Source: a virus (lineage: Duplodnaviria > Heunggongvirae > Uroviricota > Caudoviricetes). Taken from it: a DNA stretch of 9,269 nt. Both the position numbers and the translations under genes were made by a program. Below are positions 6,456 through 7,184 of this stretch, piece after piece; the first letter of the stretch is position 1, and every line of letters begins with the position of its first letter. Location: the IMG/VR virus record IMGVR_UViG_2718217789_000012; one strand, written 5' to 3'. A model generated the notes under the pieces. The model saw nothing but the letters and a program-made list of their open reading frames with translations, did no database searches and was not told the DNA's origin.

Positions 6456-6531
6456 AGCTACCTCGATACTGTTGCTATCGTTGGTTGTTAGACGCCCTGT
6501 ATGTGTGCCACCACTGCGGGGCGTTGTTATT

Positions 6532-6625
6532 TGGTGCATCGCACCATCTGTTTTTAACCTATCAGCAAGTGAATCGCACTTCAAGCCTTTTCTCTGAATT
6601 TTTTTTGTGTATACTGAATCGCACC
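6532..6625. promoter_or_regulatory. Divergent promoter/operator region with three copies of the ATCGCAC(C) motif and a -10-like TATACT for the RHH gene
   Basis: ATCGCACC at 6538-6545 sits inside the inverted repeat TGGTGC-atc-GCACCA (6532-6546). TGAATCGCAC occurs at 6570-6579 and 6615-6624; the latter lies between the -10-like hexamer (6610-6615) and the RBS. The -35 is weak or unclear. Confidence 0.4.
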
Positions 6626-6645
6626 AACTTAGAGAGGATTCAGTA

Positions 6646-6825
6646 ATGGCAACAGGTTCAACAAATAATAAGTCGCAACAGTTAAATGCCAGATTCCCGC
6701 ATGATGTTGTTGCAGACTTAGAAAAAAATTTAGATGAAGGTGAAAGCAAAGCGCAATTTATAGTTACTGCCGTTAAAGGCGAAATCAAACGCCGCCAGCG
6801 CCGCAAGGCCAAAGAGCAGGAATAG
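6646..6825 (+). CDS. Small ribbon-helix-helix (Arc/CopG-like) DNA-binding protein, 59 aa from the ATG; the only credible plus-strand gene
   Basis: ATG at 6646 is preceded by AGAGAGGA (6631-6638) at good spacing. NARFPHDVVADLEKNL...KAQFIVTAVKGEI fits a beta-strand/helix/helix RHH pattern. A -10-like TATACT lies at 6610-6615. A terminator follows at 6914-6942. The ORF track's longer 72-aa version starts at a GTG inside the promoter-like region and was not preferred. Confidence 0.6.
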   Translation: MATGSTNNKSQQLNARFPHDVVADLEKNLDEGESKAQFIVTAVKGEIKRRQRRKAKEQE

Positions 6826-6913
6826 TCCACCAGCAAGCCAGCACACTGAGCACATTGCCCACCAGACAGCAAATCGCTATGATGTTCGGGCTTATGTTTA
6901 GTGTTTTCCCATT

Positions 6914-6942
6914 GGCGACCGCCACAGGTCGCCTTTGTTTTA
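6914..6942 (+). terminator. Rho-independent terminator-like hairpin downstream of the plus-strand RHH gene
   Basis: 7-bp stem GGCGACC (6914-6920) / GGTCGCC (6927-6933) with a 6-nt loop, followed on the plus strand by TTTGTTTTATG. The minus-strand flank is not T-rich, so it is unidirectional. Confidence 0.5.
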
Positions 6943-6959
6943 TGTGTCATATGTTCCCC

Positions 6960-7184
6960 CTACGCTGCCTTACCTGAATTAATACGATCCCGGCTTTTAA
7001 CCCATTCCATAACCTCGGAAAGCAGCCAACCTACTGAACGACCACCCAGATTACGGCGTGACGGGAAATTCCCTTTTTTCTCCAGTTCGTAGCGTGTAGT
7101 GCGGCACACTCCTGTTAACTTACGGCATTCATCCTCACGGATTACGCGATCTGATAGTGATTGAAATTGTGTATTTTGATTCAT
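6960..7184 (-). CDS. alpA: AlpA-family prophage transcriptional regulator, 74 aa
   Basis: MNQNTQFQSLSDRVIREDECRKLTGVCRTTRYELEKKGNFPSRRNLGGRSVGWLLSEVMEWV fits the AlpA pattern recalled from memory (HTH followed by G-x-R-x-V-G-W and E-x-x-x-W). The int - cargo - alpA gene order is as in CP4-57-like islands. No obvious Shine-Dalgarno, so the exact start is uncertain. Confidence 0.85.
   Translation of the reverse strand: MNQNTQFQSLSDRVIREDECRKLTGVCRTTRYELEKKGNFPSRRNLGGRSVGWLLSEVMEWVKSRDRINSGKAA

Follow-up and report, generated by a model that had tools for sequence, protein, structure and literature searches.

Which factor, if any, holds a Gram-negative phage-inducible chromosomal island (PICI) in check while it is integrated? 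The question is raised by a small plus-strand gene, encoding 59 residues, in a 9,269-base stretch of viral DNA (IMG/VR record IMGVR_UViG_2718217789_000012; hereafter the window). The window is 100% identical to a chromosomal stretch of Escherichia coli strain 9000 and, judged by its gene order, is a Gram-negative PICI of about 9.2 kb with its insertion point at clpS/cspD. In such islands AlpA is the activator, its expression is triggered by a helper phage, and a global repressor has been termed 'unclear' (PMC6092414). A first-pass annotation of the window, which correctly described AlpA-type islands as activator-controlled, proposed that the small gene encodes an autoregulated ribbon-helix-helix (RHH) repressor, possibly the master repressor of the element. 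That proposal is supported here by a predicted RHH-like fold, positionally conserved sites, and covariation of the site core with the beta-strand of the protein in at least 11 classes. The 59-residue protein is probably a DNA-binding, autoregulated RHH repressor that also shuts off the replication operon of the island and comes in several specificity classes. The wider reading, in which it would be the global maintenance repressor of Gram-negative PICIs and its hypervariable strand/operator pairs would define satellite 'immunity' classes, is offered tentatively, as possible rather than probable.

The gene runs on the plus strand from the ATG at 6646 to the stop at 6825 and is preceded by a Shine-Dalgarno sequence, GAGAGG (6632–6637, 8 nt upstream of the ATG), with GGAG or GAGG at the equivalent place in related loci. 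The predicted rightward promoter, P_R (6587–6615), consists of a −10 hexamer, TATACT (6610–6615), and a weak −35 region at about 6587–6593, with a predicted start at about 6622. It was missed by a consensus promoter scan because the −35 region is poor; in all of the 43 loci compared, however, TATACT or a one-base variant of it precedes the ATG at a distance of exactly 36 nt. The unit is closed by an intrinsic terminator on the plus strand, GGCGACC-GCCACA-GGTCGCC followed by a T-run (6914–6943), whose stem (6914–6920/6927–6933) has 7 bp, six of them G-C, and then TTTGTTTTAT; it is kept in other E. coli islands with one compensatory pair. There is no minus-strand T-run at this position, and the hairpin is therefore not a terminator for alpA transcripts. 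The first-pass description of a lone plus-strand gene with ribosome-binding site, −10 element and terminator thus holds in each part, with small corrections, the gene being the sole plus-strand coding sequence (CDS) in the RefSeq annotation of the island. The orientations also agree with that description, convergent with alpA and divergent from the leftward operon, which starts with an Icd-like gene (a homologue of a cell-division inhibitor) and ends in a primase gene. Comparison with same-class orthologues gave ratios of nonsynonymous to synonymous substitution rates (dN/dS) of 0.03–0.12, at saturated or nearly saturated dS, which marks a genuine gene kept by purifying selection. A single-sequence search returned 134 homologues of 53–111 residues, from Escherichia, Klebsiella, Salmonella, Enterobacter, Citrobacter, Morganella, Proteus, Hafnia, Yersinia, Pectobacterium and other genera; a profile search returned 1798. 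A tblastn search of 50,697 phage records produced nothing at E ≤ 1e-3, a result that is uninformative for a query of 59 residues.

Three copies of ATCGCAC had been pointed out upstream of the gene, one within TGGTGC-ATC-GCACCA, and the heptamer indeed occurs exactly three times in the window (6538, 6573 and 6618). The bare count is not significant (1.26 expected; 30 of 200 shuffles reach three). The true repeat unit is 11 bp long, of the form GTG-N5-CAC: when up to one mismatch is allowed, GTGAATCGCAC is limited to 6534, 6569 and 6614 in the window, and when up to two are allowed it has 8 matches against 2.27 expected, a number reached by none of 200 shuffles. The three candidate operators lie within the 190-bp intergenic region between the 59-residue gene and the leftward operon. 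O1 (GTGCATCGCAC, 6534–6544) is contained in the palindrome TGGTGCATCGCACCA, and the TGGTGC-ATC-GCACCA inverted repeat (6532–6546) is O1 with extended arms. O2 (GTGAATCGCAC, 6569–6579) lies in the 17-bp spacer of a predicted leftward promoter, P_L, just upstream of the −35 region of P_R. O3 (CTGAATCGCAC, 6614–6624) overlaps the last two bases of the −10 hexamer and the predicted +1 of P_R, which is, by analogy, the classic position for autorepression. P_L (minus strand, 6556–6584) combines a −35 hexamer, TTGAAG (6584 to 6579), with a −10 hexamer, TAGGTT (6561 to 6556), and a predicted start at about 6549, so that O1 would span roughly +6 to +16 of the leftward RNA. It faces the icd-like gene at the head of the operon.

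The same anatomy recurs in other islands. Loci encoding relatives were collected with one genome per species (42 loci), and 43 sequences were compared for upstream anatomy. The order pri(−) ... icd-like(−) / 59-residue gene(+) / alpA(−) int(−) recurs in the fetched loci, and the module is found in Escherichia, Klebsiella, Salmonella, Pectobacterium, Yersinia, Xenorhabdus, Proteus and other taxa as well as in the experimentally studied prototype island EcCICFT073. The 130 nt upstream of the gene are organized alike in 43 of 43 sequences, with three sites in all. In these sequences O3 directly follows the −10 hexamer and overlaps its last two bases; O2 is 45 bp from O3 in nearly all loci; and O1 is 22–36 bp from O2, in either orientation, with a sequence that always matches the O2 of its own locus. 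TTGA(A/C/G)(G/A), a spacer of 17–18 bp and TAnnnT occur at a fixed register to O2 (17 representative loci, all classes), and the Icd-like open reading frame (ORF) starts 107–128 nt beyond O2 in nearly all loci. In several classes, including that of EcCICFT073, O1 overlaps the −10 hexamer of P_L as O3 overlaps that of P_R.

The sites have the form (A/G)GTG-N5-CAC(C/T), 11–13 bp in all, where N5 varies between clades and matches within a locus. Each core is paired with its own version of residues 11–17 of the protein. AATCG goes with QQLNARF in the window's class, and elsewhere AAATA is found with QMTTVRI, AATGC with QQIVSRV, AACAC with LQ(V/L)SVRL, AAACA with QLFTVRV, TCTTA with QS(V/I)TVRV, ACTCC with RQKTARV, TGCTC with QKMQARV, and GATTC, in CTG/CAG arms, with QKIQARA. 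EcCICFT073 combines TGGCC (site GTGTGGCCCAC) with QALKARV, and two further E. coli islands (L050 and L052) combine TTGAA (site GTGTTGAACAC) with QTVAARV. At least 11 beta-strand variants thus correspond one-to-one with operator cores that are changed together at three sites, so that the pattern of RHH proteins, in which beta-strand residues set the specificity for repeated short operators, appears here as covariation. With one representative per class, identity over the central five bases is 4.26/5 among the three sites of a locus and 1.63/5 between nine classes (permutation p ≤ 1e-5). Neutral drift cannot, on these alignments, explain the appearance of the same new sequence at three separate sites in a lineage, and the concerted change therefore points to a trans-acting reader that changed with the sites. 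The matched diversification of reading head and operator is unusually clear.

Which protein would be that reader is indicated by the proteins encoded nearby, in a comparison made without phylogenetic correction. Loci with the operator class of the window have AlpA, Icd-like and integrase proteins that are 30–53%, 40–44% and 25–27% identical to those of the window, and the loci with the closest AlpA (56–67%) and integrase (51–54%) carry other operator classes. EcCICFT073 has the most similar Icd-like protein (69%), yet a different operator. Of the four candidates encoded nearby (AlpA, the integrase, the Icd-like protein and the 59-residue protein), the last is the only one with a segment, the beta-strand, that maps one-to-one onto the sites. 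Cognate sites are confined to the intergenic region, with 2–3 per locus (one locus has 1 and another 4) against 6 in 471 kb of flanking DNA, which makes the regulon a local one. A search ahead of alpA and int likewise found no cognate operators.

Some loci depart from the common layout. L050 and L052 have their third cognate copy of GTGTTGAACAC at the −35 region of P_R instead of behind the −10 hexamer, so the operator layout is not completely fixed. In two other E. coli islands (L049 and L051, 880–1014) the slot holds a more YlcI-like protein with an NFS motif, and the repeated operator differs, being the palindrome TGGTACGTACCA in two copies, one of which overlaps the start codon; the slot therefore accepts different RHH/operator pairs. 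An extra palindrome, CCTTGA-N5-TCAAGG, adjoins O1 where O1 is 22–25 bp from O2 (L048, which is EcCICFT073, L013, L016 and L033). It is absent from the window and, from its sequence, may be a site for another factor.

The 59-residue protein matches the YlcI/YnfO family (NCBIfam NF041551) with 63.3 bits and E = 1.5e-17 (curated cut-off 30 bits), residues 9–50 aligning to profile positions 1–42; RefSeq annotates the gene accordingly. It also matches phrog_949, whose function is unknown. No Pfam match was found at E ≤ 1, and the C-terminal motif of DUF3950 (PF13132) is absent; in the family alignment PF13132 matches only the row of K-12 YlcI. In sequence, the satellite clade forms a distinct branch of the family. 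The AlphaFold2 model obtained with 141 sequences has a predicted local distance difference test (pLDDT) score of 85.7 and contains an extended N-terminal segment followed by two helices. The beta-strand, at about residues 10–17 (KSQQLNARF), helix A (19–27), helix B (35–58) and a basic tail reproduce the strand-helix-helix topology (about 45 residues) of the RHH superfamily. This model supersedes an earlier one from 23 sequences (pLDDT 68, with a spurious N-terminal helix), for which a Foldseek search found nothing.

The 59-residue protein itself does not reach curated-threshold membership of any RHH sequence family, and support came from the family profile and from relatives. With hhalign the family profile aligned to Arc with E = 4e-4, a score reached by none of 200 shuffled Arc sequences, and to CopG with E = 0.015, the sequences of Arc, Mnt and CopG having been entered by hand; Cro and AlpA, used as controls, gave nothing. 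The strand and first helix are in register in the Arc alignment (QQLNARFPHDVV against PQFNLRWPREVL). Relatives have sub-threshold Pfam matches to PSK_trans_fac (4 of 18, best E 0.0011), CB_ParB_C (3 of 18) and RHH_1 (1 of 18, E 0.0077). A profile-based sequence search of the Protein Data Bank (PDB) returned no match, and a profile search for remote relatives listed no protein from outside the close family and none that carries a Pfam domain. The predicted RHH fold is accepted on the combined strength of the model, the Arc alignment and the sub-threshold matches of relatives. Residues 11–15 are the variable part of the strand and R16 is invariant. In the beta-strand variants, polar residues 12, 14 and 16 alternate with hydrophobic residues 13, 15 and 17, which fits what a predicted RHH ribbon requires.

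A repressor switch is proposed from this arrangement. From the sequence we infer binding, the sign of regulation, the transcription starts and the maintenance role relative to AlpA. The 59-residue protein would bind each 11–13 bp site, most likely as a dimer. Occupancy of O3, over the −10/+1 region of P_R, would limit its own synthesis, and occupancy of O2, in the P_L spacer, and of O1, just past the P_L start, would silence the leftward operon, with its cell-division inhibitor homologue, small ORFs and primase, while the island is integrated. The reading head (residues 11–17) and the N5 of all three sites would have diversified together, giving repressor/operator pairs that do not cross-react. 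On the wider and less certain reading the switch would have two components, the RHH repressor holding the icd-like/primase operon off and helper-induced AlpA turning it on. We speculate that strong leftward transcription from an auto-activated alpA promoter could run antisense through the repressor gene and O3–O1, silencing synthesis of the repressor and clearing the operators. Such a route is possible because the minus strand shows no terminator-like site from alpA as far as the operators; it would not be universal, because many relatives have other genes between alpA and the 59-residue gene.

Several points weigh against a repressor that also governs the leftward operon. The hexamers of P_L are weak (TAGGTT), and most transcription of the operon may instead have another source, such as AlpA-dependent initiation or read-through from alpA. 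AlpA over-expression alone suffices to induce EcCICFT073 (PMC6092414), an island that carries the 59-residue gene, so repression by the protein cannot override AlpA. Because the gene is physically linked to its sites, co-inheritance could explain part of their association; against this stand the simultaneous change of the three sites and the lack of tracking with AlpA, Icd or Int. The weakness of P_L and the sufficiency of AlpA would also suit a protein whose sites serve P_R alone, with the leftward operon under AlpA only and the job of the protein lying elsewhere, for example in structure or packaging, as may hold for the lambda/K-12 YlcI by cos. O3 on the −10/+1 region is the clearest repressive site, and family members of lambdoid prophages adjoin cos and not a switch. 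Pure autoregulation is nevertheless unlikely: O1 and O2 lie 35–80 bp upstream of P_R and are not needed for it, they bracket a conserved TTGAnn-17/18-TAnnnT facing the icd-like gene in every class, O1 sits on the P_L −10 hexamer in several classes as O3 does on that of P_R, and no cognate sites occur elsewhere in the islands. That the protein instead fires P_L, or organizes the region for replication or excision after induction, is rather improbable. The RHH protein Mnt can activate as well as repress. O2 is centered at about −48 of P_R and O3 at about −70 of P_L, positions where activators can act, and AmrZ, also of the RHH type, can activate as well as repress (PMC3325190). The positions of O2 within the P_L spacer (about −25), of O1 at about +10 and of O3 over the P_R −10/+1 region are, however, those of occlusion, and the iteron-like origin repeats are 3 kb away (3361–3588) and unrelated in sequence.

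The sites might also be read by another factor (AlpA, the Icd-like protein or a host protein), leaving the small ORF incidental. AlpA is a DNA-binding regulator of these islands, and phrog_6196 and phrog_1743 label the Icd-like protein a 'transcriptional repressor'; but the site class follows the similarity of neither these two nor the integrase and maps one-to-one onto the beta-strand of the 59-residue protein, and a host factor cannot account for at least 11 cores within one host family, which makes this explanation very improbable. Hardly any weight can be given to the idea, raised by the first-pass annotation, that the gene is the antitoxin-like half of a toxin-antitoxin or addiction module. 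The autoregulated-repressor layout on which that idea was built has no co-transcribed partner gene to go with it: the stretch from the stop codon (6825) to the terminator (6914–6943) contains no conserved ORF, and many relatives have their terminator within 1–40 nt of the stop codon. The protein has 59 residues with only a basic tail and no C-terminal neutralizing domain, and the divergent icd-like gene heads an operon of about 3 kb ending in primase and is not a stand-alone toxin.

Among known systems, the Mnt/Arc pair of P22 immI is the closest functional analogue of the proposed switch, and the Stl repressor of Staphylococcus aureus pathogenicity islands (SaPIs) and the Rpr of Gram-positive PICIs are the closest in element logic; the 59-residue protein is a member of neither. 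Mnt and Arc are likewise small RHH repressors at divergent promoters (Pmnt/Pant). They use one operator of 17–21 bp that is bound by a tetramer, whereas the window has three 11-bp sites at spacings of 35 and 45 bp; the controlled functions are those of the antirepressor in P22 and of satellite replication and the Icd-like protein in the window. The homology to Mnt/Arc is marginal, and the conserved basic C-terminal tail, EIKRRQRRK, is lacking in Arc. Stl and Rpr share with the 59-residue gene a position divergent from the replication operon, from which the 59-residue protein would likewise keep the island quiescent until a helper phage acts (PMC6092414), and the candidate operators lie correspondingly in the shared intergenic region. 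They are unrelated to it in sequence. The co-orientation with int that is described for them (PMC6092414) is not seen, as the 59-residue gene is on the plus strand and int, the gene for a 257-residue protein and alpA are on the minus strand; Stl and Rpr are transcribed with int, and the 59-residue gene opposite to it. A separate activator, AlpA, is moreover essential for induction in islands of the window's type, where helper-dependent alpA expression, and not helper relief of a repressor, has been described (PMC6092414). CopG of pMV158 is co-transcribed with repB from one promoter and omega of pSM19035 binds contiguous heptad arrays, in contrast to the dispersed 11-bp pseudo-palindromes at two divergent promoters in the window.

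The relatives in K-12, YlcI (DLP12) and YnfO (Qin), belong to the same NF041551 family and, like the 59-residue protein, are small proteins of Enterobacterales mobile elements with no assigned function. K-12 YlcI scores 37.6 bits against the 63.3 of the window protein, is 17% identical to it and has the DUF3950 'NFS' motif. Its gene, as the lambda ORF, is on the minus strand about 190 nt to the left of cosN, divergent from the Nu1 homologue, and inspection by eye shows no three-site layout ahead of K-12 YlcI. K-12 YlcI (L046, 6252–6446) is identical to a minus-strand ORF at the right end of lambda (L045), which is not among the NC_001416 features listed for that stretch.

An autoregulated RHH repressor with repeated operators is a well-known kind of regulator; the literature searched does not describe this one as having a role in Gram-negative PICIs. 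Full-text searches found no paper linking YlcI/YnfO, DUF3950, RHH or CopG with PICIs or satellites. The 'putative repressor' of EcCIMP1 is PerC-like and unrelated. Virulence and anti-phage genes are spread by Gram-negative PICIs, which have so far been described as controlled by AlpA only, and the conserved module at the junction of regulation and replication is a concrete candidate for a global repressor. One branch of the uncharacterized, DUF3950-related YlcI/YnfO family would thereby gain a plausible function for the first time. The natural set of orthogonal small repressor/operator pairs (59 residues, 11-bp sites) could be used in studies of RHH recognition and in synthetic circuits.

The remaining genes of the island are nearly all on the minus strand, and their arrangement is that of a Gram-negative PICI: int, alpA and pri co-oriented, a length of about 10 kb, a specific attachment (att) site, and packaging/capsid genes at the far end. 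A tyrosine integrase (int, 8046–9269) is followed by the 257-residue protein (7276–8049), which has no match in Pfam, NCBIfam or PHROGs and partial relatives in three other islands, and by alpA (6960–7184; PF05930, E = 3.4e-16). The leftward operon, co-oriented with alpA and about 3 kb long from the icd-like gene to primase, comprises the icd-like gene (6252–6455; NF033153, 63.5 bits), small ORFs with a DUF4222 member (5346–5645) and a P4-type primase (pri, 3595–5349). A small-terminase-like (TerS-like) protein (1947–2570) and a capsid-like protein (861–1784) lie beyond, all on the same strand. The genes int, alpA and pri are essential and conserved in Gram-negative PICIs, some of which carry RNA repressors of the P4 CI/P1 c4 type (C4/isrK-type; PMC10111431). 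EcCICFT073 has the same gene order as the window, including the 59-residue gene. In that island this gene and its icd-like neighbor have the out-of-series locus tags C_RS30120 and C_RS30125, which suggests that both were added after the original annotation behind the published maps. In the window, a 232-residue minus-strand ORF (6252–6950) was rejected as a gene, its N-terminal two thirds being a spurious antisense reading of the RHH gene and of the intergenic region; its last 67 codons are the true icd-like gene, with a start at 6455 and its own Shine-Dalgarno sequence. Just downstream of the primase gene (3361–3588), an iteron-like unit, GGTAGAGGGC/GCCCTCTACC, is repeated about eight times, in both orientations; the array is probably the replication origin of the island.

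The leader of the leftward operon may carry a second layer of control. On the minus strand, 6464–6522 can form a two-hairpin RNA, with hairpin 1 from 6522 to 6494 and hairpin 2 from 6480 to 6464, the latter adjoining the Shine-Dalgarno sequence; the single-stranded stretch between them is UCUAACCAC in most loci and UCUAACAAC in the window. Over 25 loci, 92.7% of the cells of the fold are paired, a value reached by none of 500 shuffles and set against 27–42% in slid controls, and 9 of 15 pairs have compensatory changes. From its sequence the leader may act post-transcriptionally, on translation of the icd-like gene or as the target of an antisense RNA or of AlpA. The satellite and phage immunity of P4 CI RNA and P1 c4 RNA likewise resides on an early leftward leader, comparable in position to the structured leader before the icd-like gene. 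Those are RNA repressors upstream of icd-like/early genes, whereas the window would use a protein with DNA operators, and an Rfam scan for C4/isrK/CI-type immunity RNAs gave no match in the region, leader included.

The terminator hairpin was also considered as a cos site of the island. The idea arose because GGCGACC occurs in the hairpin and ylcI stands beside cos in K-12 and lambda. It was rejected: compared with the real lambda ends, the hairpin (6914–6933) has no cosN-like match, and the island has its own TerS-like gene. EcCICFT073 carries lambda-like cosN sites (PMC6092414). The only 11-mer of the window that agrees with the lambda cohesive end, at 11 of 12 bases, is GGGCGGCGACC on the minus strand (4197–4207). 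It falls within the primase coding sequence and specifies the conserved TGGDP motif there; the agreement is probably a coincidence of coding.

The 3' region of the rightward unit is itself conserved. The 135-nt stretch 6826–6960 is found in 689 E. coli genomes and always ends the rightward unit ahead of the next leftward gene (alpA, ORF6N or Bro). It includes a promoter-like plus-strand element, CATTGCCCACCAG (6853–6883; TTGCCC, 17 bp, TATGAT), that is invariant within the stretch and stands about 30 nt ahead of the conserved terminator, and the RNA fold of 6826–6945 has z = −3.5. Judged from these sequence features, the element could specify a short RNA of about 50 nt or be a protein-binding site.

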